Of a DNA stretch of 64,000 bases, positions 4,652-59,216 are shown piece after piece. Position numbers and translations under genes: made by a program. This DNA is from a virus, in IMG/VR virus record IMGVR_UViG_3300028392_000036, positions 1-64,000 of that record. The stretch is one strand, 5' to 3'. Position 1 is the stretch's first letter. Every line of letters starts with the position of its first letter. Under the pieces are notes generated by a model, which worked only from the letters and a program-made list of their open reading frames with translations, was not told where the DNA came from and made no database searches.

Positions 4652-5791
4652 ATGTCCAATTTCTTTTGTGCCGCACCCTGGCGCGGCCTACACATCAATC
4701 CACAAGGCAATGTTAAAACATGTTGTGCTGGCAACCCTAATATGCTGGGCAATCTCAACACAAACACAATAGAGGAAATCTTAAACAACGATCTCATGAC
4801 CGAGATACGTGCTAGTTTGGCACAAGGTCGACCACACAAGTATTGTAGCAATTGTGTGCAAGCTGAACGTTTTGGTGCAGATTCTGAACGTGCCTGGCAC
4901 AACAATGTAAACCCCAACTTTGATTATGCTGCCGCAGGTGATCAATATCATTATCCTGTAATTGTAGATGTGAGATGGAATACAACTTGTAATCTAAGTT
5001 GTAACTACTGTGGGCCCAGCTGTTCAAGCAAGTGGGCCAGCCTCGAAGGCGTGCCATTCCGGTCAGGCACAAGACCTTATTACGAACAAGTGTGCGACTT
5101 TATTGAACAACATTACGAGCACGTATACGAAGTAGCACTAGTTGGAGGCGAACCGTTGCTGTTGCCCGAGAATGAACGTTTGTTGGATGTTATACCAGAA
5201 ACTGCTATTGTGACACTAATCACAAACATGAGTGTGGATCTAGAAAAGAACCGAATATTTCAAAAACTTACCAAACGAAAAAAAGTAGGTTGGTCGATGA
5301 GTTTTGACAACATTGGTGATAGACTAGAATATGTACGACACGGTGCAGACTGGAATTTATTACAGCAAAACTTACAAACGGTCAAAGAACTCATGCGCAA
5401 TAACGGGCACTGGGGAGGAATACACGCGGTGTACAACATTTATAGCGCCACACGTCTTTGTGAGTTTAGACAGTTTGCTGAAGATACTGGGACCACAGTG
5501 CTGTGGCAGAACTTGTTTCAGCCCGACTATCTTGACCCGTTCCTGCATGGCCCTAGAGTAGCTAAATTGGCCAGCGAAGAGATCAATCGATTCTATGCTA
5601 TGGGTATTGCCACACCTGCCGAACGTCAATTCTTTGATCAGGCATTGGAAAAATATAGTCAATCGAGTCTAGCAACGTTTAGTCCTAGACTACGTCAAAG
5701 ATTTCGTGAACACATCCAAAACAACGAAAAATTATATCATCCAGACAAGGCAGGTGAGTTTGCAAGGTTATGGCCGGAGTTGAACATATGA
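4652..5791 (+). CDS. Radical SAM protein with N-terminal SPASM/twitch-like Cys cluster
   Basis: CAAPW..KTCC..CSNC N-terminal domain; CNLSCNYC (CX3CX2C); GGEP. Confidence 0.9.
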   Translation: MSNFFCAAPWRGLHINPQGNVKTCCAGNPNMLGNLNTNTIEEILNNDLMTEIRASLAQGRPHKYCSNCVQAERFGADSERAWHNNVNPNFDYAAAGDQYHYPVIVDVRWNTTCNLSCNYCGPSCSSKWASLEGVPFRSGTRPYYEQVCDFIEQHYEHVYEVALVGGEPLLLPENERLLDVIPETAIVTLITNMSVDLEKNRIFQKLTKRKKVGWSMSFDNIGDRLEYVRHGADWNLLQQNLQTVKELMRNNGHWGGIHAVYNIYSATRLCEFRQFAEDTGTTVLWQNLFQPDYLDPFLHGPRVAKLASEEINRFYAMGIATPAERQFFDQALEKYSQSSLATFSPRLRQRFREHIQNNEKLYHPDKAGEFARLWPELNI

Positions 5792-7377
5792 TAGGCGCAA
5801 AGAATACCCTCGACACGGTACTGGTCAAAGCACCACACCGTAAAGAAACATTTACTGAACAAGAACTTGAGGACTTTGCTCGGTGTGCCGATCCGGTAAC
5901 AGGTCCAATGTACTTTATGGACAACTTCTTCTACATCCAACATCCTGTTCGCGGCAAGATGCTGTATCATCCCTACGAATATCAAAAACGACTAATCAAC
6001 AACTATCATAACAATCGTTTTTCAATCAGTCTAATGCCTCGACAAACAGGCAAGTCAACATCAGCGGCTGGATACTTGTTATGGTATGCCATGTTTGTGC
6101 CTGATGCTACCATTCTAATTGCCGCACACAAGTACCTAGGCGCACAGGAAATTATGCAACGTATTCGTTACGCTTACGAACTATGCCCTAATCATATACG
6201 TGCTGGTGCTACAAGTTACAACAAAGGATCTTTAGAGTTTGACAACGGTTCGCGTATTGTGAGTCAAACAACAACTGAAAATACCGGTCGTGGTATGAGT
6301 ATTACACTCCTGTACTTAGACGAGTTTGCGTTTGTGAGACCCACAATTGCCAAAGAGTTCTGGACTAGTATTACACCTACACTGAGTACTGGTGGTAAAG
6401 CAATTATCACTTCAACACCCAACTCAGACGAAGATCAATTTGCCTATATTTGGAAGGGTGCCAACAAGATTGAAGACGAGTTCGGCAACCCAAGACCCAA
6501 TGGTCTGGGCACAAACGGATTCAAAGCATTCCGTGCATTCTGGCGTGAGCACCCAGATCGTGATGAAAAGTGGGCTGAAGAACAACGCAGCCAATTGGGA
6601 GACGAGCGTTTTCGTCGAGAGATGGACTGTGACTTTGTTATCAATGACGAAACACTAATCGCCCCTATTAAACTACTGGAACTAGAAGGCCAAGAACCCA
6701 CACACAAAACTGGACAAGTACGTTGGTACAGGCCTGTTGATCGAGACCGGATGTATATTGTAGCCCTTGACCCTAGTCTAGGTACAGGTGGTGATCCTGC
6801 GGCCATACAAGTGTTTGAAGCAGAAACTACTGAGCAAGTGGCAGAATGGCGACACAACAAAACTGATGTGCCCACTCAAATTAAAATCCTAGCAGATATT
6901 ATCAAAGAAATACACTCAGTGGTCAAGGATGAAAAGAAGATTTATTACTCAGTGGAAAATAATACCTTAGGCGAAGCCGCATTGATTTCTATTGCAGAAT
7001 ACGGAGAAGAAAACATACCCGGCTACTTCCTTAGCGACAACTCAGTGCAGAGCTCAAACGGACGTAGAATCCGTAAAGGATTTACCACTACCAACAAGAG
7101 CAAGATTGTGGCCTGTAACAAGTTCAAGGTACTGGTTGAATCTGGGCGTATGAAGCTGTACTCCAAGCCCTTGATCACTGAGTTAAAAACATTTGTGGCA
7201 GCCGGATCCAGTTATGCGGCTAAAATTGGGGAAACAGATGATCTTGTGATGGCTGGTTTGTTGGCTACTCGTATGCTTATGTTACTACAATCCTATCACG
7301 CAGACCTAAATTCCTACCTTAAAGACCATACGGATAATATAATTGAGCCATTTCCGTTCATTGCAATGATGCGATAG
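5788..7377 (+). CDS. terL: Terminase large subunit (T4 gp17-like)
   Basis: Walker A PRQTGKS, Walker B LLYLDEFAF, ITSTPN coupling motif, nuclease ALDPSLGTGGD and DDLVM. ATG 5788 overlaps the upstream stop. Confidence 0.95.
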   Translation: MIGAKNTLDTVLVKAPHRKETFTEQELEDFARCADPVTGPMYFMDNFFYIQHPVRGKMLYHPYEYQKRLINNYHNNRFSISLMPRQTGKSTSAAGYLLWYAMFVPDATILIAAHKYLGAQEIMQRIRYAYELCPNHIRAGATSYNKGSLEFDNGSRIVSQTTTENTGRGMSITLLYLDEFAFVRPTIAKEFWTSITPTLSTGGKAIITSTPNSDEDQFAYIWKGANKIEDEFGNPRPNGLGTNGFKAFRAFWREHPDRDEKWAEEQRSQLGDERFRREMDCDFVINDETLIAPIKLLELEGQEPTHKTGQVRWYRPVDRDRMYIVALDPSLGTGGDPAAIQVFEAETTEQVAEWRHNKTDVPTQIKILADIIKEIHSVVKDEKKIYYSVENNTLGEAALISIAEYGEENIPGYFLSDNSVQSSNGRRIRKGFTTTNKSKIVACNKFKVLVESGRMKLYSKPLITELKTFVAAGSSYAAKIGETDDLVMAGLLATRMLMLLQSYHADLNSYLKDHTDNIIEPFPFIAMMR

Positions 7378-7395
7378 TGCGCTAAATATAATACC

Positions 7396-9636
7396 ATGGC
7401 AACAACGAACTCTATATCACAACAACTGCTGGATTTGCTGGCTACACGCAACTTCCATCCCGAAATGCTGAACAAGATGGGACAACCATCTAACGCAGAA
7501 GACGCCAAAACATTTACGTTTGACTATATTTCGGGTGCAGGTAAGAACTATGGTACTATGGTTATTGTACTAGACAATGACAACGAAATGAAGATCATGT
7601 ACGGGGACAACCTGGGCCGTACCATGGAAGGTGATGACAAGAGTGAGTTCTTTGATTTCTTACAACATTTGAATCAAAAAGCCACAAGCAATCGTTGGAC
7701 ACACAGCATTGCCGATATCAACCAACTCAAGCATACCATGCAAGGCATGGCAGCCATTCAAGAAGGCCTATTTGAAGGCTACTATGGTACACGTAAGGTT
7801 AGCTATGCTGGCGAACCCACTCAAGCCCGACTACAAATTGTACACAGCCAGCCCTTGGGCGAAGGTGATGCACGTTATCGCCACATTGACCGTATGTTTA
7901 TTGAAACAGCCGAAGGTGAAAAGTTCAAACTGGGCTTCAAGAGTCTAAGTGGTGCTAGAGCCATGCTGGAACATGTTCGCCAAGGCGGCAAGCCTTACGA
8001 TATTCGTGGTTGCCATATTTCGGAAACAGTAAACGAAATTGCTGTGCTGAGCCGATTCAATCGTGCCAGTGCAAATCGCATACTAGAAGGCGTCACACAA
8101 GAACTAGTAACAGAAGCACAGGCTTACTATCAAACCCTACGTGAAAATCTCAAGCACATGGCTAGCGGCCGTGGCTATGCCCGGTATTTTGAATCGTGGC
8201 ATCCGGCTACCATAAACGAACAAGAAGGTGTTGTGGACAACATCAAGACTCTGTTTATTGAACAGAGTATAGACAGCCGTATTGAAGCGGCATTACCACT
8301 GCTGGCCAAGATTCAGCAAAGAGGACATGAAATGAAAGAAGCAGAAATATTTGAAAACTGGATTAACAATCTATCAGAAGGTACTTGGACATTGCCAGAA
8401 ACTCCTGAGCAATTGGACAAACTCAAAACATTAATGACCGGCGAATTGATTGTTGGGCCTGATGCTACCAACGCAACAGAACAACTGTATGATCTAGTAG
8501 GCGATGATGAATTGTTTGATCGACTGCATGCTCTTGCCGAACAAGATCCCAGAGCCAATGCCTGGAACGATACTGAAGTCATGCAACGCTTGGCCGAACT
8601 GGGTGTTGAAATGCCTGAGCCCACAGCACCAGGCAATCCTGCTGAACCCCAAACAGGCGCAACTGCTCCTGTGGTACCACAACAAGGTGTGGCAGAAAGT
8701 GATACACCAGCACAACCAGCAGTGAAAATTATCAACGACTTTGATGAAGTAGTTGCAGAATTCGATCATGTACCAAAAGGATTTAGAGATGCACTCCGTA
8801 GTACTGAGTTTGATGCTGTTCAATGGCTTGCAGATGTAATGAAAAAAGATCCCGACTTTGATATAACCACTATCGAAAAAATAGTTTTAGCACCCAATGT
8901 GTCTGGTTACCCAGAGCAATATGTAATTGATGTTACAAAATATTTAGATGCCTTGGATGAAGGTGACAACCTGGCCACATTCGAAGACATCAACAGCCTG
9001 CGCAACTTGGCCGGATTGCCAGTAGCAGAAAGTCGCTTGATGGACAGTGCTGGTGAAACATTACAACACATTCTGGGCCGTTTCAAACACGAAGTTAAAA
9101 ACTTTGAAGCCGACGGCGATCTCAATGATGAGTTGTATCATGCCTTGTATGATTACTACAGTGACAATGGTGAAATGCCTTATGGTGTGGCCAAAGCACG
9201 TGATGGCGATCCTTACAACTGGATCAGCGACAAGTTATCAGCCGAACTAGGTGTAAACGAAAATCTTATCTCTCCCATGGCTATGCCTGTCACTACCGAA
9301 AGCGGCTCATGCAACATGACTGCTGAAGGCGAGTACTGTCCAGAACACGGCCTTGCAGAGTGCGGAATGGGCATGCCAGCAGGTATCATGGGCGAAGAAA
9401 AAGTAGATGAGATCATTGATTATGACACACTAAATCAATTAGCATCGCATCCAATGGCAGGTCCTCTTGCTGCCGCAGGCGGTGCCGCACTTGGTGCCAC
9501 AGTTGGCAAAGGAATTGAAAAACTTGGCAATATGTTTAAAGATAGAAAAGAACAAACCGCACTTGATCGTGCCGCTGGACTCAAAGAAGGCGATGCTGTG
9601 CTGGCAAGAATAAAATCATTGGCTTTGCTAAAATAA
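7396..9636 (+). CDS. Large acidic modular virion/head protein
   Basis: 746 aa after terminase; late-type TAAATA upstream; repeated X-X-E-(G/S) sites, QQGVAESD linker, Cys motif CNMT..YCPEHGLAEC. Confidence 0.55.
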   Translation: MATTNSISQQLLDLLATRNFHPEMLNKMGQPSNAEDAKTFTFDYISGAGKNYGTMVIVLDNDNEMKIMYGDNLGRTMEGDDKSEFFDFLQHLNQKATSNRWTHSIADINQLKHTMQGMAAIQEGLFEGYYGTRKVSYAGEPTQARLQIVHSQPLGEGDARYRHIDRMFIETAEGEKFKLGFKSLSGARAMLEHVRQGGKPYDIRGCHISETVNEIAVLSRFNRASANRILEGVTQELVTEAQAYYQTLRENLKHMASGRGYARYFESWHPATINEQEGVVDNIKTLFIEQSIDSRIEAALPLLAKIQQRGHEMKEAEIFENWINNLSEGTWTLPETPEQLDKLKTLMTGELIVGPDATNATEQLYDLVGDDELFDRLHALAEQDPRANAWNDTEVMQRLAELGVEMPEPTAPGNPAEPQTGATAPVVPQQGVAESDTPAQPAVKIINDFDEVVAEFDHVPKGFRDALRSTEFDAVQWLADVMKKDPDFDITTIEKIVLAPNVSGYPEQYVIDVTKYLDALDEGDNLATFEDINSLRNLAGLPVAESRLMDSAGETLQHILGRFKHEVKNFEADGDLNDELYHALYDYYSDNGEMPYGVAKARDGDPYNWISDKLSAELGVNENLISPMAMPVTTESGSCNMTAEGEYCPEHGLAECGMGMPAGIMGEEKVDEIIDYDTLNQLASHPMAGPLAAAGGAALGATVGKGIEKLGNMFKDRKEQTALDRAAGLKEGDAVLARIKSLALLK

Positions 9637-33217: not shown

Positions 33218-33730
33218 ATGATGAATCAGTCTGCATTGGATAATGCTGTGTGTCTTACGCAAGATCTGTATCATGTGCATGATTTATTAAATGAACACAC
33301 ACTCGCAACAATTCTGCAACAACTAGAATTGCAAACACACTGGCAATCGGTGTTGATGCAAGAAAACAAGCCTAGGAAGTCACTGTCATGGATTGACAAT
33401 GGATTGCTGGATCAGATATGGTGCATGCTTGACAAGTTAGATTATTCAAGATTTGGATTAAAATTTACACATGTGTCGTTGTGGAAAGATCAACATCCGT
33501 ATTTCATTGGACAACATGTTGACAACGATCAAGTGTCGGCAGCCATGCAAATTTACCTCAATTCGGGACTAGCTGAATTAGGCACTTGGTTTGAAGGTAT
33601 ACCAATTCCTTTTGTTCCAAACTCCGGGTATATCATGCACAATCGAAACAAATTAAAACATGGCATGAAGCATGCTGTACCACCAGGATTCGTTCGATAC
33701 AGTTTGTACGCATTATTTGACTATGTATAA
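33218..33730 (+). CDS. 2OG-Fe(II) oxygenase-like protein
   Basis: HVD...MQIYL...KHGM...RYSLY facial-triad pattern. Confidence 0.75.
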   Translation: MMNQSALDNAVCLTQDLYHVHDLLNEHTLATILQQLELQTHWQSVLMQENKPRKSLSWIDNGLLDQIWCMLDKLDYSRFGLKFTHVSLWKDQHPYFIGQHVDNDQVSAAMQIYLNSGLAELGTWFEGIPIPFVPNSGYIMHNRNKLKHGMKHAVPPGFVRYSLYALFDYV

Positions 33731-34751
33731 TATCTCAGACATTCGTGATGTACACTTAGAAATATCTAGTTTATGCAATGCCGCCTGTCCATTGTGTCCT
33801 AGAAACTTTTACAGTTATCCTTACAACGATGGATACATTGAACACAACATGACGTTGGCAGAAGCAAAACAAATATTTGCCCCGGCCTTTTTACAACAAA
33901 TTAACACAATAAACATCAACGGAAATTTTGGAGATGCAGTAATGAATCCTGAAACTGTTGATATTGTTGAATATTTTAAAAAAGCAAATCCTGATATCAC
34001 AATCATAATGAGTACCAATGGTGGTGCTCGAGACACAACGTACTGGCAACAATTGGCTGTGTTAGGAGTCCAAGTTGATTTTTGCCTGGATGGTCTTGAA
34101 GACACACACAGCCTGTACAGACAAAACACGATCTACGGCACAGTGATCAAAAATGCCAAGGCATTTATTGCAGCCGGCGGCTTGGCTGTCTGGAAAATGA
34201 TTCGGTTTGATCACAACGCTCATCAAATTGATCAGGCTCGTTTGCTGAGCAAGCAAATGGGTTTTGCAGATTTTAAGATTCATGACCACGGTCGTGATCA
34301 GGCACCGGTATTTGATTTGAACCAACAAGTAAAACATACTATTGGTAAACCACAACAAACTGAATTTTCAATATTGTGGAAGTCAAGAACACAAGATGAA
34401 GTTTTGCTTGAAGATGTGGTTGGTCAGCGCACGCCAGCACCGATCAAGTGCAAGGTTGTGTCAAGGAAATCTTTGTATGTGTCCAGCACTGGCGATGTTT
34501 ACCCTTGCTGTTGGCTAGGATTCAATCCAAAAAATTATGGACATGGTAATTACCATCAAGCGGCCAATGCACAGTTCAAACACTTTGTGGTCGAAAACAA
34601 TGCACTTGACCATGATCTTGAGCATTGTATTCAGTGGTTCAACAACATAGAGCAAAGTTGGCACAAGCCCAGTTTTGAATCAGGACGACTGATTATCTGC
34701 AATGACGTCTGTGGCGTTAAGACGCAACACCTTCAATCACAGCAAAAGTGA
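33723..34751 (+). CDS. Radical SAM protein with C-terminal SPASM/twitch
   Basis: CNAACPLC, GNFGDA, STNGG, LDG, GDVYPCC. Confidence 0.9.
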   Translation: MYNISDIRDVHLEISSLCNAACPLCPRNFYSYPYNDGYIEHNMTLAEAKQIFAPAFLQQINTININGNFGDAVMNPETVDIVEYFKKANPDITIIMSTNGGARDTTYWQQLAVLGVQVDFCLDGLEDTHSLYRQNTIYGTVIKNAKAFIAAGGLAVWKMIRFDHNAHQIDQARLLSKQMGFADFKIHDHGRDQAPVFDLNQQVKHTIGKPQQTEFSILWKSRTQDEVLLEDVVGQRTPAPIKCKVVSRKSLYVSSTGDVYPCCWLGFNPKNYGHGNYHQAANAQFKHFVVENNALDHDLEHCIQWFNNIEQSWHKPSFESGRLIICNDVCGVKTQHLQSQQK

Positions 34752-35634
34752 ATACAGGTGCATCAGTGGCTGTACCACTTGCGGCAGAGAATGTGATTCT
34801 GAAACTGCCATCTGCCACTGCACTGATGTATGTTTCGTAGATGTTGGTACCTGATTTCTGATTGACGATGATCACATCATTTGCAGTCACTAGACTGTTG
34901 GTCACTGTGAAAGAAGTATATGCAGAAGTACCTGCCGCAGAATACAAAGTGATAGCACCGCACTTTTTGTTGAGTGTGACACCGGTTGTGCGTGATGATG
35001 TTTGTGTTACAGCACCACCAGCACCAGCAACAAAGCCAACTCCTAGCCCTGCACCAGCCAGTAGTGGTCGAATCAAATCATAGATGGCAATTGTGGTACC
35101 TGAATCCACACTGCTGAAAGCAAATCTATAGGTTCCAGTGGCACCAAATGTGATAACGTTGGCAGCATATCCTTGTATGCCAGTGGTTCCCACACTCACT
35201 GCACCGGGTAATGTAACTGTGTAAGCAGTATTGGTCACAACAAAGTCAACATAAACAACACCTTCTGATCCTGAAGCAGGCCAGTTTGAAAAACTCAAAC
35301 TAACATTAGCAGTGGGCGCAATCAACTGATACTGTCCAGCTGAATAATCAATGGGGATAGCACCTGCAGTCACAGTTTGTTGCACATAGGTGTAACTGAC
35401 ATCTTGTAATTTAACGGCGTATATTAAATTATCCGCCATGTTGTTGTCAAGTGTGGTGCCGGTTAACGCGGCTTTGAAAACACCTTTGTTTTCCAAGTCA
35501 GTGATCTCATTTTTTGCTGTTGTAAAGTTAGTTTTGATGTTGGTAAAATTATCTCTAAAGCCCTGTGTGTTATTGGGCTGGCCAGCAACGGGGTATGTAC
35601 CGTCTATGTTGTTGGGGTTGATTTGACTTGTCAT
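34717..35634 (-). CDS. Virion structural protein
   Basis: YPVAGQPNNTQGFRDNF N-terminus; T/A/G-rich beta body; minus-strand TAAATA at 35661-35656. Confidence 0.65.
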   Translation of the reverse strand: MTSQINPNNIDGTYPVAGQPNNTQGFRDNFTNIKTNFTTAKNEITDLENKGVFKAALTGTTLDNNMADNLIYAVKLQDVSYTYVQQTVTAGAIPIDYSAGQYQLIAPTANVSLSFSNWPASGSEGVVYVDFVVTNTAYTVTLPGAVSVGTTGIQGYAANVITFGATGTYRFAFSSVDSGTTIAIYDLIRPLLAGAGLGVGFVAGAGGAVTQTSSRTTGVTLNKKCGAITLYSAAGTSAYTSFTVTNSLVTANDVIIVNQKSGTNIYETYISAVADGSFRITFSAASGTATDAPVFTFAVIEGVAS

Positions 35635-35704
35635 TGAGTATTCCTGTATAATAGATATTTATTAGAATCCCTAAAGCACTAAATAATCCAAAGGCCCAGA
35701 TCGA

Positions 35705-35953
35705 ATGCAGAAAAAGACCCGAAGTTTGCTGGAAGAATTAGATTCAATGTATGTGGAGCGGGATCGCCGCCTGATCATTGAAACTAGAGCTGACAGCGTG
35801 ATTGTCAGTGCCATACGCTTGATTGAACAAATTGAATCAGAGTTTGGACCTGAGCAAGCAGACAACCTCACACGCAAACTGCTCAATGCCATACGCACCA
35901 AAGATGCCGGCAAGTTTTCAAGATCTGTCAGGAGAACCAATGCAGATTCATGA
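35705..35953 (+). CDS. Hypothetical protein
   Basis: 82 aa, helical; TAAATA at 35680-35685. Confidence 0.7.
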   Translation: MQKKTRSLLEELDSMYVERDRRLIIETRADSVIVSAIRLIEQIESEFGPEQADNLTRKLLNAIRTKDAGKFSRSVRRTNADS

Positions 35954-36689
35954 AATAACCAAGCGTAACCTAAACGAAGCAGGATTTGGAGCAGGATTGG
36001 CCAGCGGCCTAACTTCGGCCCTAAGCAAGGTTGGAGTTGGTGGACCTGATGCTAGTGCGTATCAACAATCCAAAATAGGAGGCCCAGGTGGACAACCGGG
36101 TGCCTACAAAGCCACGGCTGGCCTGGTCAAAACACTAACAACAACCATGCAAACAGCCTGGGCACAGACTATAAAATCATATCTAGAACAAACCAAGGAT
36201 GAACAGGGTAATCCTGTCATGGGCATTGCACAGTTACCTCCTGCCGCACAATCAATGTTGCACAAAGATCTAATGGCAATGATCAATAACACCATACGTC
36301 CCAGTATGCGTAACTTTGATTATCAGACCATGGGCAATCAATCTAACGATCCTGATGTAGTGGGCGCAGCCGCAGATATCAAAGATACTATCGCTAAAAA
36401 TGCAGACAAAATTTATCAACTCACAGTCAGCGGCACTGCTAAAACAGCCCAACTGACTCAGTTGTTTCAAGACATGGTAACCAATGGTATAGCTCCAGCA
36501 CAGAATTTATTGACTTTTACAACACAAAGAATAACTCCTAAATGGGGCAGAGACCCCACAACTGGAGAGATCACCATTGACACTCGCGGCGGTCAACCTG
36601 AAGTATTCGATTCATCCAATCCTCAACACAAAGAAGCCTGGGCCGATATACAAAATGGCATGGCCTCAAAAGGCCATCCTCCGGTATGA
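35940..36689 (+). CDS. Putative internal head protein
   Basis: GGAG RBS; N-term MQIHEITKRNLNE-AG followed by a Gly-rich segment. Confidence 0.55.
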   Translation: MQIHEITKRNLNEAGFGAGLASGLTSALSKVGVGGPDASAYQQSKIGGPGGQPGAYKATAGLVKTLTTTMQTAWAQTIKSYLEQTKDEQGNPVMGIAQLPPAAQSMLHKDLMAMINNTIRPSMRNFDYQTMGNQSNDPDVVGAAADIKDTIAKNADKIYQLTVSGTAKTAQLTQLFQDMVTNGIAPAQNLLTFTTQRITPKWGRDPTTGEITIDTRGGQPEVFDSSNPQHKEAWADIQNGMASKGHPPV

Positions 36690-38593
36690 TCAATCTCAAC
36701 GAAGGTGGCAATGTTTTCAAAGATGCACAAGGACAGCCACTAACACAACGCATCAAACAAACTGATATTCCTTCCACAGTGGCCTGGTTGGAAAAACTTA
36801 CTGGACTAGATCTGTCAGCTACCAAGGACGAATTAGGTGTCCCAGTTAAATGGTTAGGATCAACTGGCAAAAAACCTGACTCAGGTGATCTGGATCTTGC
36901 TGTAGATTCCAACGAAATAACCAAGGCCGAGCTAAAAGGCCGACTAGATGCCTGGGCCACAAAGAACAAGCAAGACCCCAAAGCCTGGACAAAACTCACA
37001 GGCGAAGCAGTACATTTTAAAACACCCATACAAGGTGATCCCAAGCGTGGTTATGTACAAACGGACTTTATGTTCATGCCCAACATGGAATGGGGCACAT
37101 TCTGGCTGGGTGGCGGTGCAGGATCAGCATACAAAGGTGTGTTCCGTAACGTACTGATGTCAAGTATTGCCAAAGCACTAGGACTCAAAGCCTCAGCCAA
37201 AGGTATTATCAGTCGTCAAACAGACAAAATGGTCACAATGGATCCAGATCAAGCCGCTGGTATCTTGTTGAGCCCTAATCTCAATAGCCGTAAAAATCTC
37301 GCCACAGTAGAAAGCATTTACAAAGCACTGGCAATGGATCCTGACCGTGATGCCAAACTGGCAGACTTCCGTGAGTATCTTGCACGTGAAGGCGTAAAAG
37401 AACCCGAACAGGGAGTGGCCGAAAGTGATGTCAACTTCTTGGCTCGCCTGCGTGACCGTATTGTGAACCAGGGCTATGTTGCCCTGGTAGAAGCAGAACA
37501 AGCTGGTGTGGGTGGCAGAGCCAAGGGCATCGAGCACCTGGAAGATCTAGTGTTCCGTCGTGGTACACAAGGCATCCGAGACGCACTCGAAATTGTTAAA
37601 CATGCCACAACACAGCCGTCAACTGTGACAGCTAAATGGGACGGCAAACCTGCTGTGATATTTGGACGCAAACCTGCCACTGGAGAGTTTGTGCTAACTG
37701 ATGGATCGGGCTTTGAAGCCAAAGGCTACGATGGTCTAGCAACAAGTCCACAAATGATGGCTGACATACAAAGCCATCGACCGGGCGACAGAACTGAAAT
37801 AATTCAAATCTATGCCACATTGTTTCCTATACTAGAAGCCGCATTGCCGCCCAACTTCCGTGGCTATGTCAAAGGCGACTTGCTGTACATGCAGACACCT
37901 CCTAATATTTCTGGCAACTATGTGTTCCGTCCTAACACAGTAGAATACAAAATTCCTGCCAAGTCCCCACTGGGACAGCGCATCGGAAACTCAGATATCG
38001 GCATTGCTATTCACTCAATGTATGCCGACGCAGGTGATGCACGTCAACCGTTAAGTGGTGTACGTTTTAACGACGTTCCAGGATTGATGTTAGAAAAGCC
38101 AGCAAGTCCCAAGCAGTTACAAACTGAAACCAACGCCGAAAAACAACTCAAGGCGTTGATCAAAACACATGGCAAAAACATAGATATCTTGTTTAATCCT
38201 ACAGAATTGCGAGCACACAAGATTACAGATCTAGCAAAACTGTGTGTGGACTTTATCAACACCAAAGTTGGCAGCCCGCTTAATGGTGCTACACTATTGC
38301 CCGAGTTTGGAAAGTGGCTAGAAACCAAGGTGACCCCACAAAAGTTCCGCAATATTGTGGAATACTTGAATAGCCCTACATCTAATACCCCTGCACTGGC
38401 AGCCGCATTTAATGCGTTTAACTTGTTACACGATGTCAAAATGCACTTGTTACAGCAAGCAGATACCGAGCACCCGGGACAAGAAGGCTGGGTCATGGCC
38501 ACCCCTGTAGGCTATGCAAAAGCAGTAAACAGATTTGATCCCAACGCATTTGCCGCTCAAAACCGCCTGAGAAACAATCCTCAACAGGCGTGA
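36686..38593 (+). CDS. Pol-beta-like nucleotidyltransferase fused to ATP-dependent ligase-like domain
   Basis: LGSTGKKPDSGDLDLAV plus VQTDF; then HLED, KWDG, KGDLL, EGWV, KAVNR; QGVAESD linker between the two. Confidence 0.65.
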   Translation: MINLNEGGNVFKDAQGQPLTQRIKQTDIPSTVAWLEKLTGLDLSATKDELGVPVKWLGSTGKKPDSGDLDLAVDSNEITKAELKGRLDAWATKNKQDPKAWTKLTGEAVHFKTPIQGDPKRGYVQTDFMFMPNMEWGTFWLGGGAGSAYKGVFRNVLMSSIAKALGLKASAKGIISRQTDKMVTMDPDQAAGILLSPNLNSRKNLATVESIYKALAMDPDRDAKLADFREYLAREGVKEPEQGVAESDVNFLARLRDRIVNQGYVALVEAEQAGVGGRAKGIEHLEDLVFRRGTQGIRDALEIVKHATTQPSTVTAKWDGKPAVIFGRKPATGEFVLTDGSGFEAKGYDGLATSPQMMADIQSHRPGDRTEIIQIYATLFPILEAALPPNFRGYVKGDLLYMQTPPNISGNYVFRPNTVEYKIPAKSPLGQRIGNSDIGIAIHSMYADAGDARQPLSGVRFNDVPGLMLEKPASPKQLQTETNAEKQLKALIKTHGKNIDILFNPTELRAHKITDLAKLCVDFINTKVGSPLNGATLLPEFGKWLETKVTPQKFRNIVEYLNSPTSNTPALAAAFNAFNLLHDVKMHLLQQADTEHPGQEGWVMATPVGYAKAVNRFDPNAFAAQNRLRNNPQQA

Positions 38594-39868: not shown

Positions 39869-40350
39869 CACGAGACCAGAAATTAGAACAATGGGCCGAA
39901 CGTGAGCTCAAACGCAACATCGATTCTATTATCATAGACAATGGTGCAGGCGGTATCGTGGTTTTTGGCAAATATTGTATTGAATCTATTGACAATAGAT
40001 TTAGTGTTAGTACTTGGGATAGAGAAATACACAGTTTTAGCAGTAAAAAAACAGCCATGAGTTGGTGCACTGCTGATCACCAACAACAGTACAATTTAAG
40101 TAATTTGATACTGGTGTTGGACCGTAAAAAACAGGCATTAGCCGCAGATATATACTGTCGTAAGACAGTGGGCGAACGTGGACGCCATGAGAATTTTTAT
40201 GAAATCATAAACATGAAAATTCAACCCAAAATAGACCTATATAATTCTGTAAATGCAGAATTAGAAAATTGTGTAAATCGGGCTAAATATCTACAGATTA
40301 GAGGATTCAATAATGAAACTGCAAGAACTAGCGGCTCCCAAGCCAAGTAA
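39865..40350 (+). CDS. Hypothetical protein
   Basis: ATGA overlap with the upstream gene. Confidence 0.65.
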   Translation: MTRDQKLEQWAERELKRNIDSIIIDNGAGGIVVFGKYCIESIDNRFSVSTWDREIHSFSSKKTAMSWCTADHQQQYNLSNLILVLDRKKQALAADIYCRKTVGERGRHENFYEIINMKIQPKIDLYNSVNAELENCVNRAKYLQIRGFNNETARTSGSQAK

Positions 40351-41272
40351 ACAAATCGCCAAAGTATTCGAAAGTTACTTTGGTTCACGTATCCGTTTTG
40401 ACCAATTAAACCGTGGCCAAACTCGTGTGATGTTGGGCAAAGTACAAGGTGTATTAAAAGAACACCGTGGCACAACAGCTCGTCACCGCAGTGAAACAAA
40501 TCCCAAATATTTGCAACTGGTAATGATGGAACAGGCATTGAGTGCTAGACTACAAGAAATGCAAACCACACTTCCACCAAGTGGCGGAGTCGGTGCTCCT
40601 GCTGGTACCCCTGCACAACCCGGTGCCATTGGTGCCGCCACTCAGCCAGGTGCCGCACCTGCTGCCGGTGCAAAGCCACCACAAGATCCTAAATTGGCAG
40701 CCGCGTTAAAGAAATCTACTGCCGGTCAAGCACTGACCCCAGAAGAACAAAAATTAATAGCTGGTGCCGCAATGATGCAAGCCGAAAGCCGACTACGTCG
40801 TGCAATGAAACGCCTTAACGAATCAGAAGTACAACAGGCTCAAGTTGTGTTGGCCGCTCAAGACATGGTTGACAAAATGCAAGGCATGTTGGAAGATGTT
40901 TCAGAATTGCAATTTAAAGAATTGCCAGCTCTGGTCGACTCGATCAAGAACCAAGTTGGCATTGATCAAGCCACACAATTTAATACAGATGCCACTGCCG
41001 CCTTGACTGGCCTGATACAAAATCTGGGAGGTGCCAAGCAACAACTTGATGCCGCTCTAGGTGTTGTAACTGGCCAAGCTCCGTCAGGTGCCGCGGCCGC
41101 TGGTGCAATGGGTGCTGACATTGCCGCTGGTGCAGGCGATATGGCCGCTGCCGGTGCCGACATGGGTGCTGACATGGGTGCTGACATGGGTGCAGATGCC
41201 GCACTGGATGCCGCTGCCGCAGAAGCCGGTGCTGAACCTCCTGCTGCCGCATTAGGCCGCGCCAAGAGATAA
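40313..41272 (+). CDS. Putative prohead core/scaffold-like protein
   Basis: MKLQEL leader; helical domains separated by P/A/G linkers; RLQE, QAES, RLNES sites. Confidence 0.5.
   Translation: MKLQELAAPKPSKQIAKVFESYFGSRIRFDQLNRGQTRVMLGKVQGVLKEHRGTTARHRSETNPKYLQLVMMEQALSARLQEMQTTLPPSGGVGAPAGTPAQPGAIGAATQPGAAPAAGAKPPQDPKLAAALKKSTAGQALTPEEQKLIAGAAMMQAESRLRRAMKRLNESEVQQAQVVLAAQDMVDKMQGMLEDVSELQFKELPALVDSIKNQVGIDQATQFNTDATAALTGLIQNLGGAKQQLDAALGVVTGQAPSGAAAAGAMGADIAAGAGDMAAAGADMGADMGADMGADAALDAAAAEAGAEPPAAALGRAKR
41153..41197 (+). repeat. 12-bp tandem repeat (GGTGCNGACATG, encoding GADM)
   Basis: About 3.7 copies in frame. Confidence 0.85.
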
Positions 41273-41634
41273 TGAAAATTTTTGAAGTTGACAGTAGCAT
41301 GGGAATGGCGCCGCCGCCTAACCCAGCACAACTGTCAGGATTGGTACAGTTTCTTAATGGTCGTGCTAATGATACCAATGCCAAAAAAGAAATCAGCCAG
41401 GATGCGTTTATCAAACTGGCCAATGATTTGGACATCAATGTTACTCCCCAAAATCTAGCCGATATTGTGAGTCAAGAACCACTCAGCAACCTGTTGGAAC
41501 CAATGGATCCAAATACAAAAATTTTAGCATTCAAGGGCGCTGGTACCCCAGATGTTGCCATGCCCGTAAACAAAGCACAAGACATTGTGGCTTCGGCAGC
41601 CAAATCGGCAATGAACAAAGACCGCGGCGTCTAA
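41272..41634 (+). CDS. Hypothetical (putative head-associated) protein
   Basis: MKIFEV leader; translationally coupled. Confidence 0.6.
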   Translation: MKIFEVDSSMGMAPPPNPAQLSGLVQFLNGRANDTNAKKEISQDAFIKLANDLDINVTPQNLADIVSQEPLSNLLEPMDPNTKILAFKGAGTPDVAMPVNKAQDIVASAAKSAMNKDRGV

Positions 41635-42151: not shown

Positions 42152-42531
42152 TGGCCTATTCAGAAAAAGTAATCGATCATTATGAAAATCCCCGAAATGT
42201 GGGCAGTTTTAGCACTACTGACGATACCGTTGGCACTGGTATGGTTGGTGCACCTGCTTGCGGAGATGTTATGAAGTTACAGATAAAAGTAACAGATGGA
42301 ATTATTACAGATGCAAAATTCAAAACATACGGGTGCGGTTCCGCCATCGCGAGCTCAAGTCTCGTTACAGAATGGGTCAAAGGTCGAACACTTGAGGAAG
42401 CAGGATCCATACGAAATAGCGAAATTGCTGAAGAGCTTGCTCTCCCCCCAGTCAAAATCCACTGCTCCATTCTTGCCGAAGACGCCATCAAAGCCGCGGT
42501 AGAGGACTATCGCAAAAAGCATGTTCAATGA
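42151..42531 (+). CDS. iscU: Fe-S cluster scaffold IscU
   Basis: MAYSEKVIDHYENPRNVG, APACGDVM, GCGSAIAS, LPPVKIHCS. Confidence 0.97.
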   Translation: MAYSEKVIDHYENPRNVGSFSTTDDTVGTGMVGAPACGDVMKLQIKVTDGIITDAKFKTYGCGSAIASSSLVTEWVKGRTLEEAGSIRNSEIAEELALPPVKIHCSILAEDAIKAAVEDYRKKHVQ

Positions 42532-43586
42532 ATCTGTCAGATATTCAGACTTTAACGTTTGAACCTTCTTCCTACTGCAATGCACAGTGTCCGCATTGCC
42601 CTAGATTTAACATAACCAATCATGATGTTTTTGAATCCACAGGAATCCTACATCCTAATTTAAAACTTTTAAATTTAGATTTTTCAACGATAATACCAAA
42701 TTTGCAACTTGACCAAATGACCTCGTTGACAAAGATCATAATTGAAGGTGACAAAGGGGATCCATTAATGAATCCCGACATAGATATTCTATTAGACGCA
42801 TTTGCATCAATGAAAGTTGCGCCAACTGTGGTGCTTACCACCAATGGTAGTATTCGTAATGCAAGTTGGTGGCAAAATCTTGCTAAAAAATATCCTTTTT
42901 TAATAGTACAATTTAGTATAGATGGTCTGGCTGATACAAATCATTTGTATCGCCTGGGATTGAACTATAAGACTATTATAAAAAATCTTTCAACATTTAC
43001 TGAATCTGGTGGACGTGCAATTTGGAAAATGATTGTATTCAAACATAATCAACATCAGACAAAGGAAGTTGAGAATCAATCCAGACAACTGGGTTGTGAA
43101 AAAATTGTTTATATAAGATGTCAGATCGAGAGATTTAAAGGATTGGCGCAATGGCCAGTTATATATAACAATCAAACTCATTATATCTCCCCACCTGATA
43201 TTAATATTCCGTCGTCAGTGACATTTAAAAATACACCAAGTAAAACAATAAAAATCAATAAAGTATTAGATAAAAATTGCCCCTGGGGCAAAAATGGCCA
43301 TGTATATATTGGGTATCAAGGGCATGTGCTACCTTGTTGTATGATGCATTTTGATACTGAATTAAATTACGTAGGACAAACTTATTTAGAAAATTTATCT
43401 CAGGGTTTTGACAATCAGAATTTGCTATTAAATAGCATGGAAAAAATATTAAATAATCCATTGTTCAATGGTTCACTGGAGCAAAGTCTCCAACTTGGAA
43501 AATGGCATAGCACCTGTGTTCAGAATTGTAAACAACAAATTCTAACAAATATTTCAAATCGTAAATCCTATGATATCGTTCACTGA
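42528..43586 (+). CDS. Radical SAM protein with SPASM/twitch
   Basis: CNAQCPHC, GDKGDP, TTNGS, SIDG, GHVLPCC; paralog of the ORF at 33723; AT-rich. Confidence 0.9.
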   Translation: MNLSDIQTLTFEPSSYCNAQCPHCPRFNITNHDVFESTGILHPNLKLLNLDFSTIIPNLQLDQMTSLTKIIIEGDKGDPLMNPDIDILLDAFASMKVAPTVVLTTNGSIRNASWWQNLAKKYPFLIVQFSIDGLADTNHLYRLGLNYKTIIKNLSTFTESGGRAIWKMIVFKHNQHQTKEVENQSRQLGCEKIVYIRCQIERFKGLAQWPVIYNNQTHYISPPDINIPSSVTFKNTPSKTIKINKVLDKNCPWGKNGHVYIGYQGHVLPCCMMHFDTELNYVGQTYLENLSQGFDNQNLLLNSMEKILNNPLFNGSLEQSLQLGKWHSTCVQNCKQQILTNISNRKSYDIVH

Positions 43587-43893
43587 CGCGGCTCGAACAA
43601 AAATACAAAAATTAGTCACAGCCAAAAACTATGCTGGTATTCGTCTTGGCGTAAAAACTACCGGTTGCTCGGGACTTGCTTATGTGTTAGAATACGTTAA
43701 AGAATACAAGTCTGAACCGTATGTTACCAACTATGCACAAAATGATTTTGTAGTACTAGTAAATCATAAAGACGACATCTATCTTAAAAATATGACAGTA
43801 GACTATGTGCGTCAAGGACTAAACGAAGGTTTTGAATTTAGCAATCCTAATGAACGTGACCGATGTGGTTGCGGAGAATCATTTAGAGTATGA
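43570..43893 (+). CDS. iscA: Fe-S assembly A-type carrier IscA
   Basis: TTGCSGLAY, F.NPN, CGCGESF. Confidence 0.95.
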   Translation: MISFTDAARTKIQKLVTAKNYAGIRLGVKTTGCSGLAYVLEYVKEYKSEPYVTNYAQNDFVVLVNHKDDIYLKNMTVDYVRQGLNEGFEFSNPNERDRCGCGESFRV

Positions 43894-45170
43894 CCACCCA
43901 AACAATAGAATGGATTAAAAATAATCCTGCATTCTGCACGGCACCTTACGCTGTTTATGATTTTAGATATTATAATGATAAATGTAAAATAACAACCTGC
44001 TGTAACTTAGACTTATCCAGCACCAACAATACTTTGGATCTTGATTTTATAGAAAAGGTCAAGCAAGATATGGCACAGGATGTGGTACCCAACTCTTGTT
44101 GGAGGTGTACATCAGAAGAACAAAACCAAGCGCAAAGTGAGCGTGTGAAATATTTAATAGGACACACGGTTGCTGACTTAGAACAGTTTAAGCAAAATAA
44201 AAAAACAAATGAATTTCAAATTGGTATGAAATTCAGCAACCTATGTAATCTGGCTTGCCGTAGTTGTAATGAAACTGACAGCAGTTTATGGTCAAAGTTA
44301 ATGACTCGTCCCACCAGTCCGGAATATGAAATTGATATTTCGTCTGACGAGATTCTTTGGGACACAATAACTCGTATGATTCGGGCCAAGCATTCAGAAA
44401 CTGACAATTTTATTGTACACCCAATTGGTGGTGAAACAATGATTCAGCCAGGGTTTGCAAAATTAGTTGATTGGCTTATTACAGAAAATCTAGCCAGCAC
44501 AACCACTTTACGTATTACTACTAGTTTGGTTCCTAACATTGCTGACAAGTTTTTGGAAAAGTTTACGTTATTTCAACGTGTACAATTTTTGTCAAGCATA
44601 GATAGCGTGGGTGAAAATTATCATTATGTTCGCTGGCCGGCCCGATTTAACAAAATACAAGATAACCTAAAAACATTCAAAACTTTATCGTCGCAATACC
44701 CTAACAAATTTTCGCTAAGTGTTAGTCCAGTATTTTCATTAAACAATATCTTTTACGCTGTGGACTTCTTGGACTGGTGGGAAAACTGGGCAGATCAAAC
44801 ACAAACTGATTTATGGTTATCTAATATACATTTGTATAATCCAGAAATGTTAATGGTAGAAAGTTTACCATTTGAATACCGCCTGCAATTAACGGTATTG
44901 TTAGACCAGTGTGTTGATCACAATGTTTTTAAAAAATATAAACAAACTGATGTGCTCAGGGGATATTTTTCTGCCATGCAAGCCACAACACAAAACAACC
45001 CAACAGATACACAAACATTGTTCACACAGTATTTAGAATTCACTGCCGACTACGACAACCGTACAAATACCAACAGTTATCAATTAAATTCAAAACTATT
45101 TGACTTACTATCTAGCACACACCAAAATATATACAACTCTCACTTGAAATATGTACAATCCAAAATTTGA
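43890..45170 (+). CDS. Radical SAM protein with N-terminal twitch-like domain
   Basis: CTAPY..TCC..CWRC; CNLACRSC; GGE; SIDS..YVRWP; paralog of the ORF at 4652. Confidence 0.88.
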   Translation: MTTQTIEWIKNNPAFCTAPYAVYDFRYYNDKCKITTCCNLDLSSTNNTLDLDFIEKVKQDMAQDVVPNSCWRCTSEEQNQAQSERVKYLIGHTVADLEQFKQNKKTNEFQIGMKFSNLCNLACRSCNETDSSLWSKLMTRPTSPEYEIDISSDEILWDTITRMIRAKHSETDNFIVHPIGGETMIQPGFAKLVDWLITENLASTTTLRITTSLVPNIADKFLEKFTLFQRVQFLSSIDSVGENYHYVRWPARFNKIQDNLKTFKTLSSQYPNKFSLSVSPVFSLNNIFYAVDFLDWWENWADQTQTDLWLSNIHLYNPEMLMVESLPFEYRLQLTVLLDQCVDHNVFKKYKQTDVLRGYFSAMQATTQNNPTDTQTLFTQYLEFTADYDNRTNTNSYQLNSKLFDLLSSTHQNIYNSHLKYVQSKI

Positions 45171-57842: not shown

Positions 57843-59216
57843 ATGAATGAAACAGACTTCTCAAACGAAAGGTTTGACAGCATAGTGGCGGCAGGGTGGA
57901 TCCGTGATCTAGAAAGTTCGGACAGTCGCATACACAAAGAAAAAACAATTGAAAAAGCACTTATGGCCGCCAAGTTGGGCAGTGCCGATGCACAATGTTT
58001 CCTCTTTAATTGTTATCAGGCTTACAATCCTTTCTACACCTTTAACATCCGTCAAGTGCCCGAGACTGAAGGCTTGACTGGTAGGCCTAACCCTTGGACA
58101 AAATTTTGGGCCTTGCTAGAAGCCTTGCGTACAAGATCTACTACAGGTAATCGTGCTCGCGAAAGCATTGAATCGATGAGTCAGATGTTTGACTCAGACG
58201 AGTGGAACAACTTGGCTCGCCGTGTGATGATCAAAGATCTACGATGCGGTATCTCAGAAAAAACACTTAACAAAGTACTGGGCAAGACTGAGTACCGGAT
58301 TCCTGTGTTTACTTGTCAACTGGCACAAGACTCCACAGACCAACCCAAGAAACTCCGAGGCATCAAACGCCTGGAAGTCAAACTGGATGGTGTGCGTGTG
58401 TTAGCAGTAGTTGACGGTGACAATGTTACCTTGTTCAGTCGCAACGGTAAAGAGTTTGAAAACTTTCCGCAGATTGCAGATGTTATTGAAGATGTTCGAA
58501 AGCACTTTCAATGGGGTCGTGGTACCGGTGGTCGCTATGTGTTAGATGGTGAGATTGTGGGAGAGAGTTTTCAGAAACTCATGAAACAAGCACATCGCAA
58601 GAGCGATGCTGTGACTGATGGTATGATGTATCATATTTTTGATATCATCCCGTTGGAGTCATTGCAAGAAGGACATTGTAACCTGCAACAGTACAAACGC
58701 ATCGAGTGGCTCGAAAGGTCCAAGGAACGTCTTTTGGAAACCTCTTGCCTGCGTATCATGAATGGCCTAGAAGTGGATCTGGACACAGCCGAAGGGCACG
58801 ATATAATGCAACGATTTGCTGAAGCATCAGTAGCCGAAGGCTTTGAGGGCATTATGATCAAGAGTATGGATGCACCTTATGAGTGCAAACGTTCGGACTC
58901 GTGGATGAAATGGAAACCTACAATAAGTGTTGATCTCAATATTGTGGGTTTTGAACAAGGTACTGGTCGCAATGCTGACCGGTTGGGTGCTATAATTTGT
59001 GAAGGAGAAGACAATGACCGTAGAATTCGTGTTAATGTTGGTAGTGGGTTTAGTGATACTCTTCGTGATGAGTATTGGGCCAATAGGGATCAGTTACTTG
59101 GTCACTTGGTTGAAGTCCAAGCGGACGCAGTCACCCAAAATCAAGACGGAACCTACAGCCTCCGATTCCCCCGGTTCTTGAGATTCCGTGACTTTGAAGC
59201 AGGAGAGAAAGTTTGA
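57843..59216 (+). CDS. ATP-dependent DNA ligase
   Basis: EVKLDGVR, LDGEI, FDII, EGIMIK, KWK, SLRFPRF. Confidence 0.95.
   Translation: MNETDFSNERFDSIVAAGWIRDLESSDSRIHKEKTIEKALMAAKLGSADAQCFLFNCYQAYNPFYTFNIRQVPETEGLTGRPNPWTKFWALLEALRTRSTTGNRARESIESMSQMFDSDEWNNLARRVMIKDLRCGISEKTLNKVLGKTEYRIPVFTCQLAQDSTDQPKKLRGIKRLEVKLDGVRVLAVVDGDNVTLFSRNGKEFENFPQIADVIEDVRKHFQWGRGTGGRYVLDGEIVGESFQKLMKQAHRKSDAVTDGMMYHIFDIIPLESLQEGHCNLQQYKRIEWLERSKERLLETSCLRIMNGLEVDLDTAEGHDIMQRFAEASVAEGFEGIMIKSMDAPYECKRSDSWMKWKPTISVDLNIVGFEQGTGRNADRLGAIICEGEDNDRRIRVNVGSGFSDTLRDEYWANRDQLLGHLVEVQADAVTQNQDGTYSLRFPRFLRFRDFEAGEKV

Follow-up and report, generated by a model that had tools for sequence, protein, structure and literature searches.

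In a 64,000-nucleotide (nt) stretch of viral DNA (hereafter the window), positions 1 to 64,000 of the IMG/VR virus record IMGVR_UViG_3300028392_000036, the gene at 36686-38593 encodes a fusion protein that we read, with a probability of roughly 0.6, as a two-step nucleic-acid end-repair enzyme, which would first extend a broken end and then seal it, with possible cleavage of the precursor and carriage in the phage head. Its N-domain is predicted to adopt the palm-plus-thumb fold of family X DNA polymerases (PolX), and its C-domain, DUF6267, the fold of ligases and capping enzymes. The source is a 142.9-kb record of an uncultured giant lake phage and, because CheckV rates it 41% complete, the complete genome is probably ~350 kb. 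A sequence-only reading of the window had described the open reading frame (ORF) as a Pol-beta-type nucleotidyltransferase (NTase) fused to a ligase-like domain; the ORF of 635 amino acids (aa) exists, and all the motifs listed for it are present and conserved across the family. Its parts are as follows.

36686-38593 (+), fusion ORF, 635 aa, stop codon included; 100% match in its own record
36686-36703 (+), MINLNE pre-domain peptide, residues 1-6; disordered (predicted local distance difference test score, pLDDT, <50), ends in L-x-E
36704-37405 (+), PolX-like nucleotidyltransferase domain, residues 7-240, assigned by predicted model, fold searches and conservation
36887-36895 (+), predicted catalytic D68 and D70 of the N-domain
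37064-37066 (+), predicted catalytic D127 of the N-domain
37406-37528 (+), interdomain linker, residues 241-281: one helix, then a disordered stretch
37484-37492 (+), L267-V268-E269, inside the disordered part of the linker (residues 263-279)
37529-38590 (+), DUF6267 ligase-fold covalent nucleotidyltransferase domain, residues 282-635, assigned by PF19782, model, fold searches and conservation
Residues 284-288 (+), conserved HxEDL element, N-terminal in the C-domain
37634-37636 (+), motif I lysine K317, in KWDG
G393/D398 (+), motif III of the C-domain, GDLLY
38129-38470 (+), helical insert of ~115 residues, residues 482-595, between motifs IIIa and IV
38483-38533 (+), motifs IV-V, E600-R616: EGWV, KAVNR

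A Pfam search of the fusion protein returned DUF6267 (PF19782) over residues 282-617 (E 1.8e-31) and no other match at E<=1, and a PHROGs search returned phrog_455, whose function is unknown. Neither the protein nor the profiles of its two domains retrieved a solved relative in PDB sequence searches, and a literature search for DUF6267 found nothing. The family is large, with more than 4000 homologues at E<=1e-3 (the top 120 at 84-100% identity) and 1473 cluster representatives at 50% identity. Neither domain is visible by sequence, and both assignments rest on predicted structure together with motif conservation.

The N-domain carries the Pol-beta superfamily signature hG[GS]x(7-13)DhDh, here LGSTGKKPDSGDLDL, plus a third carboxylate in VQTDF; across 33 diverse sequences D70 is invariant, and G58, D68 and D127 are each conserved in at least 90%. 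The AlphaFold2 model of this domain, built from the family alignment, has a pLDDT of 92.5. In a VIA-align structure comparison against 48,161 PDB representatives, the top 10 rows for the N-domain are all PolX (Z 7.3-10.3, 150-180 residues aligned). The model aligns with Pol beta residues 140-335 at Z 10.3 (164 residues aligned, root mean square deviation 3.4), with Thermus PolX at Z 9.8, with Pol lambda and TdT at Z 9.6, and with the whole of African swine fever virus (ASFV) PolX at Z 9.2 (156/176 residues aligned). Foldseek gave 80 matches at E<1e-3, with PolX throughout among the matches listed (E 4e-5), and ESM-Atlas offered a weak lead to PolX (PF14792 on 17% of one cluster, score 0.84). 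Because the best fold matches are PolX over palm and thumb together, residues 20-209 of the predicted model would be the equivalent of a minimal palm-plus-thumb PolX. Terminal uridylyltransferases (TUTases), poly(A) polymerases, CD-NTases, OAS and CCA-adding enzymes match over the ~85-residue palm alone, at Z <=6.9, and the readings of the N-domain as a CCA-adding, cGAS/OAS or TUTase enzyme were rejected on this ground (palm-only alignment at Z 4.5-6.9, versus ~10 for PolX). The sequence-only reading had proposed a fold check against CCA-adding and cGAS-like enzymes and RNA ligases; NTase and ligase folds are indeed predicted, but the N-domain is PolX-like rather than CCA-adding- or cGAS-like.

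The C-domain model, likewise from AlphaFold2 and the family alignment, has a pLDDT of 90.1. As the sequence-only reading had supposed, it contains no OB domain; the helical insert is seen instead. Among 40 sequences, K317/D319/G320, G393/D398, E600/G601 and K612/R616 are invariant or nearly so, KWDG is kept in 120 of 120 close relatives, and in the model the conserved residues occupy the strands where motifs I, III, IV and V would be expected. By alignment, then, the predicted catalytic residues of both domains are kept in homologues, as the original proposal anticipated. VIA-align rows 1-34 for the C-domain are nearly all ligases or capping enzymes, with unrelated helical proteins ranking below; the scores are Z 7.7 against NgrRnl/Rnl5, 7.2 and 6.8 against Trl1-LIG, 6.5 each against T4 Rnl2 and Rnl1, 5.5-6.4 against DNA ligases and ~4.5 against capping enzymes. 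Foldseek matches are weak (best E 5e-3), and nearly all of those listed are ligases. The predicted structure thus gives DUF6267 a covalent nucleotidyltransferase (ligase/capping) fold without an OB domain, at moderate Z (<=7.7). The best structural matches, Naegleria Rnl5 (NgrRnl), Trl1-LIG and T4 Rnl2/Rnl1, align over 174-214 residues and share with the C-domain the motif order I, III, IV, V and the lack of a canonical OB domain. However, the C-domain has no sequence similarity to these OB-less RNA ligases, and it differs from them in its helical insert, its HxEDL element, a motif III Asp where ligases usually have Glu, and a motif V of the form K-x-V-x-R. The fusion ORF has no match to PF09414 (Rnl2-type RNA ligase), and the C-domain none to PF01068, which in this phage matches just a separate gene. 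This gene is the genuine DNA ligase to which the sequence-only reading had already pointed.

57843-59216 (+), separate canonical ATP-dependent DNA ligase, outside the module; phrog_114 E 3.2e-94, PF01068 E 1.5e-22, the PF01068 match spanning 58350-58916

In T4-related and jumbo phages, the two domains travel as a conserved, mobile pair. Among 150 family representatives clustered at 50% identity, 57 have the N-domain before the C-domain, 6 the reverse order, 35 the N-domain only and 52 the C-domain only, so that 63 of the 150 are fused in either order. In Atu_ph07, the ligase-like gp066 lies directly upstream of the N-only gp065; gp066 has a weak match to Pfam RNA_ligase (PF09414, E 0.002, below the cut-off), carries EKLDGS as motif I, and is named 'RNA ligase' in BFVD. 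In Phosso, the ligase-like protein 446 is directly upstream of the N-only protein 447, and in PA5oct, gp228 (446 aa), whose predicted structure matches the DUF6267 model at E 7e-6, is three genes upstream of the N-only gp231. Comparison of the DUF6267 profile with these ligase-like neighbours in Atu_ph07, Phosso and PA5oct by hhalign gave insignificant, motif-I-sized matches. Taken by itself, the C-domain has matches in 321 phage records, most of them from T4-like cyanophages, as well as in the pelagiphage HTVC008M. In cyanophages, the DUF6267 gene has uvsX, gp61 and nrd genes as neighbours and adjoins a HIGH-motif 'cytidylyltransferase'; in S-PM2 (BFVD A0A0M6VVW4) and many uncultured phages, DUF6267 is fused to a HIGH-motif domain. 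The cyanophage gene upstream of DUF6267 was considered as an N-domain homologue and ruled out, as the two are not homologous. Longer relatives fuse the N- or C-domain to ART-PolyVal, Acb1, Amidoligase_2, NT5C/HAD or HIGH-type NTases; no MuF or portal fusion was found among relatives, and the window protein consists of the two domains alone.

Fusion or adjacency of DUF6267 to a HIGH-motif (GGFKPPHxGH) cytidylyltransferase/NMNAT-like domain recurs in P0138, P0143, P0147, P0149, P0172, P0173, P0191, P0225 and P0258, and the HIGH-motif domain also adjoins DUF6267 in the cyanophage L002 (5179-5742). Up to three different nucleotidyltransferase folds occur within one protein in some relatives. Two metagenomic proteins show further combinations: P0235 (754 aa) fuses DUF6267 to a domain of the Acb1 family (anti-CBASS 2H phosphoesterase), and P0258 (866 aa) fuses a PolX-like domain to ART-PolyVal and a HIGH NTase.

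Partners of this kind bear on a non-repair role, in which one or both domains would make, cap or destroy a small nucleotide (interference with immune signalling, or NAD-related chemistry) or nucleotidylate a protein. The frequent fusion or adjacency to HIGH-motif NTases, including that in S-PM2, and the fusions to Acb1 and ART-PolyVal are in line with such a role, and Pol-beta NTases of conflict systems often modify proteins (PMC5512222). Yet the N-domain includes a thumb, a subdomain characteristic of template-reading PolX enzymes, ligase motifs I, III, IV and V are all conserved, and an enzyme that extends 3' ends, tightly paired with one that seals them, follows classic repair logic; moreover, polyvalent proteins mix unrelated activities, so that fusion partners say little about the pair itself. 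We consider a non-repair role very improbable, and interference with nucleotide signalling, one of the functions suggested by the sequence-only reading, found no specific support.

From the predicted folds, the conserved residues, the linkage between the two domains and the L-x-E kept before each of them (see below), we infer both catalytic steps as well as substrate, cleavage and packaging. In the first step, the N-domain would use a three-Asp metal site (D68/D70/D127) to restore a missing nucleotide, or a few, at a 3'-OH; in the second, DUF6267 would self-nucleotidylate on K317 and seal the 3'-OH/5'-P break. The earlier notion of a two-enzyme module acting on nucleic-acid ends is well backed by the predicted folds, the conserved residues and the repeated fusion or adjacency of the domains. 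The broken substrate has somewhat less than an even chance of being RNA (e.g., tRNA damaged by host nucleases); phage DNA with gaps or nicks is almost as likely, and another substrate is improbable. An OB-less ligase domain nearest to RNA ligase structures, an Atu_ph07 partner that resembles RNA_ligase, the HAD and 2H-type fusion partners, and the canonical DNA ligases already present in these phages favor RNA. DNA is favored by the PolX-specific thumb, by the linkage to replisome genes and by cyanophages, in which gp30 is reported absent (PMC2993671) and the one genome searched combines DUF6267 with no further ligase family.

Two known systems combine similar activities. RlaP proteins, Pol-beta NTases that occur alongside RNA ligases, are common in jumbo phages (PMC7824862), and RlaP has been shown to add 1-2 nucleoside monophosphates to damaged RNA 3' ends (preprint 10.64898/2025.12.29.696909). 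As in the present pair, a Pol-beta NTase, there an NTase plus a helical domain, is genomically coupled to a ligase; RlaP-ligase pairs are proposed to restore 1-2 nt at a 3'-OH and then ligate. By contrast, the window NTase is a predicted PolX palm plus thumb, and its partner is DUF6267 rather than Rnl1, Rnl2 or RtcB, often fused to it and flanked by LxE. PF10127 has no match at E<=1 in the window protein, nor in the source record, G001, PA5oct or Phosso, and its only match in Atu_ph07 is a gene other than the N-only homologue, a genuine RlaP. The second system is viral DNA base-excision repair, carried out by the PolX-ligase fusion of Phaeocystis globosa virus (PgV) and by PolX plus ligase in ASFV (PMC5537341). 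There too, a large DNA virus combines a PolX-type core with a ligase, either in one protein or as separate partners, and ASFV PolX, like the N-domain, is palm plus thumb alone. The differences are that PgVPolX has an NAD+-dependent LigA-type domain and a deoxyribose phosphate lyase, whereas the window protein has an OB-less, unclassified ligase-like domain and no 8-kDa lyase, and that, compared with PgVPolX and ASFV PolX, the window protein has no PolX sequence similarity and a bacterial host. Because PF10127, PolX and ligase profiles fail to match, the present pair, as far as profile searches define families, is a member of neither the RlaP-RNA-ligase nor the PgV PolX-ligase family.

The segments that precede the two domains suggest a further step. 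Both the MINLNE leader and the linker, to which the sequence-only reading had drawn attention, are present and predicted to be disordered. [LIMV]xE stands directly before GGN[VI]FK in 81 of 87 N-domain copies, and in 26 of the 27 internal copies in longer proteins; at least four homologues that start at the N-domain itself (P0129, P0135, Atu_ph07 gp065 and PA5oct gp231) begin with M-GG or M-SG and have no LxE. In the 120 relatives at 84-100% identity, the pre-domain peptide is hypervariable (MMYLNE, MYLKE, MNLLE, MRLLE) and L-x-E is kept. As for the C-domain, 81 of 88 copies have an [LIMV]xE no more than 16 residues ahead of the HxEDL start, with a peak 5-7 residues before it. A disordered, conserved L-x-E before each domain suggests a precursor that can be cleaved into two enzymes.

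In T4, gp21 cleaves after L/I-x-E, and the capsid-targeting sequence (CTS) has 10 residues, with processing determinants at positions 8 and 10 (PMC9026906). A CTS-like leader, M-[KRQNE]-h-x-[ED]-h, is found in 33 of 141 representatives (MRFNEFKIVE, MRYNDLKIVE, MRFNELRKPILSE-GGNIFK), as against ~11 of ~198 genes of this genome that carry the same leader, including three tandem genes at 2541-3684 (described below), the 249-aa gene whose end overlaps the fusion, and the two at 40313 and 41272 (listed below). As with T4 internal proteins and Alt, short M-[KR]-h-x-[ED]-h...[LI]-x-E leaders are carried by otherwise unrelated proteins; for the window protein, cleavage and packaging are proposed from the sequences. 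Phage polyvalent proteins are predicted to be packaged and processed (PMC5512222), and relatives of the window protein resemble them in shuffling domains with ART-PolyVal, Acb1 and Amidoligase_2; the survey of phage-type polyvalent proteins reported no Pol-beta NTases and no 2H-ligase association (PMC5512222). The N-only homologue of PA5oct, which aligns over 111 residues that include the catalytic motifs (32% identity, E 4e-12), carries the annotation 'structural protein, ESI-MS/MS' in a block of like-annotated genes, and 93 virion-linked products have been reported for PA5oct (PMC7318152). An S77 (gp21-type) protease is encoded by PA5oct, Atu_ph07 and a cyanophage. The precursor might be cut after E6 and E269 by a T4-type prohead protease to give two enzymes, which would be carried in the head and delivered with the DNA. 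We hold processing and packaging of the fusion protein to be tentative, at best somewhat short of even odds; the complete scheme, in which a T4-type prohead protease would cut the polyprotein after E6/E269, and the free enzymes, stored in the capsid and injected, would mend phage DNA or host tRNA before phage gene expression, is doubtful. The virion delivery proposed earlier gains indirect comparative support from relatives (L/IxE borders, leaders, fusions and the PA5oct mass spectrometry annotation) but not from a late structural context.

Some of the leader-bearing genes of this phage deserve mention. At 2541-3684 of the window, three tandem, paralogue-like genes of ~126 aa start with MRAREF[VI]xE, which resembles a T4 CTS. 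A radical SAM gene and TerL follow downstream; the three match no known family and are, judging by these starts, candidate internal (ejected) head proteins. In the full record, further leader genes lie at 104633-105448 (-), 135832-137640, 137801-138004 and 142338 to the end, with the leaders MRFNEFIPE, MKINDVLVE, MRANEFVTE and MKINDILNE; among them, a 602-aa leader gene has a short-segment match to 'virion structural protein' PHROGs.

The borders and leaders would have to be read differently if the protein were an uncut cytoplasmic enzyme of RNA (tRNA) repair akin to RlaP plus Rnl, with L-x-E and leaders as mere domain-border or translation-start features. Many homologues have no leader, the nearest folds are RNA-ligase-like and OB-less, and the HAD/NT5C and Acb1-type 2H phosphoesterase fusions resemble end-healing partners, all of which would suit such an enzyme, as would the RlaP paradigm itself (PMC7824862; 10.64898/2025.12.29.696909). 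On the other hand, PF10127 misses the N-domain, a true RlaP is encoded separately in Atu_ph07, partners of the Pnkp or RtcB type were not seen, and the PA5oct homologue is annotated as found in the virion. In addition, LxE lies in predicted disordered segments and is missing exactly where a protein begins at the domain. Taken together, we regard an uncut RNA-repair enzyme as rather unlikely.

Contrary to the sequence-only reading, which placed the fusion gene among late structural genes, its neighbors are primase, DnaB-type helicase, radical SAM enzymes, ribonucleotide reductase (RNR) and unknowns. The region is T4-like replication territory, with TerL, gp32, UvsX, helicase, primase, DnaB-type helicase, RNR and DNA ligase, and the nearby genes that match 'virion structural protein' PHROGs are only two, at 35705 (82 aa) and 40313. 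The order primase, DnaB, small ORFs, fusion is kept in relatives at 49% and 41% identity, and DnaB likewise precedes the N-only gene, with intervening genes, in Atu_ph07 and Phosso. The immediate surroundings are as follows.

35623-35652 (+), sigma-70-type promoter-like site, TTGACT-18-TATAAT, 11/12, upstream of the run 35705/35940/36686
35705-35953 (+), 82-aa gene, first of the three-gene run; phrog_11854 'virion structural protein', E 2.3e-15
35940-36689 (+), 249-aa gene, overlapping the fusion start by 4 nt (ATGA)
40313-41634 (+), two neighboring genes with the same leader type (MKLQEL..., MKIFEV...), the first with a weak match to a virion structural PHROG

The promoter-like site is suggestive only, as the total number of sites in the consensus scan was not above that in shuffles. 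The T4 late promoter TATAAATA is not enriched (2 sites versus 2.2 expected, none near the fusion gene) and is therefore silent on expression timing. The fusion is probably made from a host-type promoter next to replisome genes.

Since the N-domain is PolX-like over palm and thumb, DNA gap-filling becomes a serious alternative to RNA repair. The protein would then be a cytoplasmic enzyme of DNA replication or repair with no virion role, in which PolX fills gaps and DUF6267 seals them (base-excision repair, single-strand breaks or Okazaki finishing), and DUF6267 alone would be the 'missing' DNA ligase of T4-like cyanophages. The specific palm-plus-thumb fold, the conserved primase-DnaB-fusion order together with the DnaB-N-only order of Atu_ph07 and Phosso, the sigma-70-type promoter, and the position of cyanophage DUF6267 among uvsX, gp61 and nrd are all consistent with this, and the PgV PolX-ligase is a working precedent (PMC5537341). 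The complete T4-like cyanophage Sf-CH1b (PV340850.1) encodes DUF6267 and no ligase matching PF01068, PF01653 or PF09414, and gp30 is reported absent from marine cyanophages (PMC2993671), so DUF6267 may be the only ligase-fold enzyme of such phages. Against DNA repair, a canonical ATP ligase is already present in this phage and in PA5oct, and an NAD+ ligase in Atu_ph07; the C-domain has no OB domain and its nearest structures are RNA ligases; and the Atu_ph07 partner weakly matches Pfam RNA_ligase. Such an enzyme would also leave unexplained the LxE borders, the leaders, the polyvalent-type fusions and the PA5oct virion annotation. We consider a purely cytoplasmic DNA-repair enzyme unlikely, though it is the alternative to which we give most weight.

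Several points weigh against a two-step end-repair enzyme carried in the head. Searches of Pfam and of PDB hidden Markov models gave no sequence link to PolX, RlaP or any ligase family: the N-domain matches neither the DNA_pol_B_palm/thumb Pfam families nor PolX in PDB sequence and profile searches, and the DUF6267 profile gives only an insignificant, motif-I-sized hhalign match to the phage's own DNA ligase. Scores for the ligase fold are moderate, reaching Z 7.7 and, in Foldseek, E 5e-3, and the enzymatic roles of all family members are predictions from fold and conservation. Step 1 of ligation usually needs an OB or other C-terminal domain, and the C-domain has neither. No end-healing kinase/phosphatase or apurinic/apyrimidinic (AP) endonuclease was found in the 143-kb fragment (ExoIII and EndoIV types were searched), and at 41% completeness the AP endonuclease result is uninformative. 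As for cleavage and packaging, no S77 protease (PF03420) was found in the 41%-complete record or in four related contigs, including a 75%-complete, 262-kb relative; the leader of the fusion has just 6 residues, and the cyanophage, PA5oct and Atu_ph07 homologues have none; and the sigma-70-like promoter is early-looking and stands in a replisome neighborhood. As a pattern in aligned proteins, LxE could also persist as an inherited domain-border motif through shared ancestry.

The genes around the fusion show several further features. The 82-aa gene has 47% identity to PA5oct 148406-148621 (RefSeq 'virion structural protein'), 42% to Phosso 327781-328002 and 62% to the syntenic gene in L011. It was considered as the counterpart of the 81-83-aa 'structural' genes beside the PA5oct and Atu_ph07 NTase genes, which are not the same; its true PA5oct homologue sits 4.5 kb further upstream. 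In the 249-aa gene, the leader MQIHEITKRNLNE is conserved and the remainder is divergent; its L011 counterpart starts with MEIHELTQRH and is otherwise unalignable, and the gene has no family match and no detectable homologue in Atu_ph07 or L007. The 319-aa protein of 40313-41272 combines its MKLQEL leader with an Ala/Gly/Met/Asp-rich repetitive C-terminus (GADMGADMGADMGAD) and a weak match to phrog_14154 'virion structural protein'. Radical SAM/SPASM genes are scattered in the replication region (33218-34751, 42528-45170 and 4652-5791), and the one between DnaB and the fusion operon is absent there in relatives and so looks like an insertion. In L011, the 49%-identity relative, the DnaB helicase and the RNR large subunit (6842-9037 and 21721 onward) have intein/HINT matches, which the window versions do not have.

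DUF6267, so far unannotated although it is matched in hundreds of records of cultured T4-like cyanophages, in HTVC008M and in phage proteins from metagenomes by the thousand, thereby gains a testable function, with a predicted ligase fold and a defined, predicted active-site lysine, K317. If this reading is true, DUF6267, a near-universal 'hypothetical' gene of marine T4-like cyanophages, would be a new family of OB-less polynucleotide ligases, the N-domain would be the first minimal PolX-like enzyme family recognized in tailed phages, and the pair would be a second 'extend then seal' lineage, independent of RlaP-Rnl. Should a protease really cut at the L-x-E borders, nucleic-acid repair enzymes would be added to the anti-defence proteins that phages inject and may be the first injected repair enzymes, and jumbo phages would load sets of enzymes into the head via polyprotein processing.

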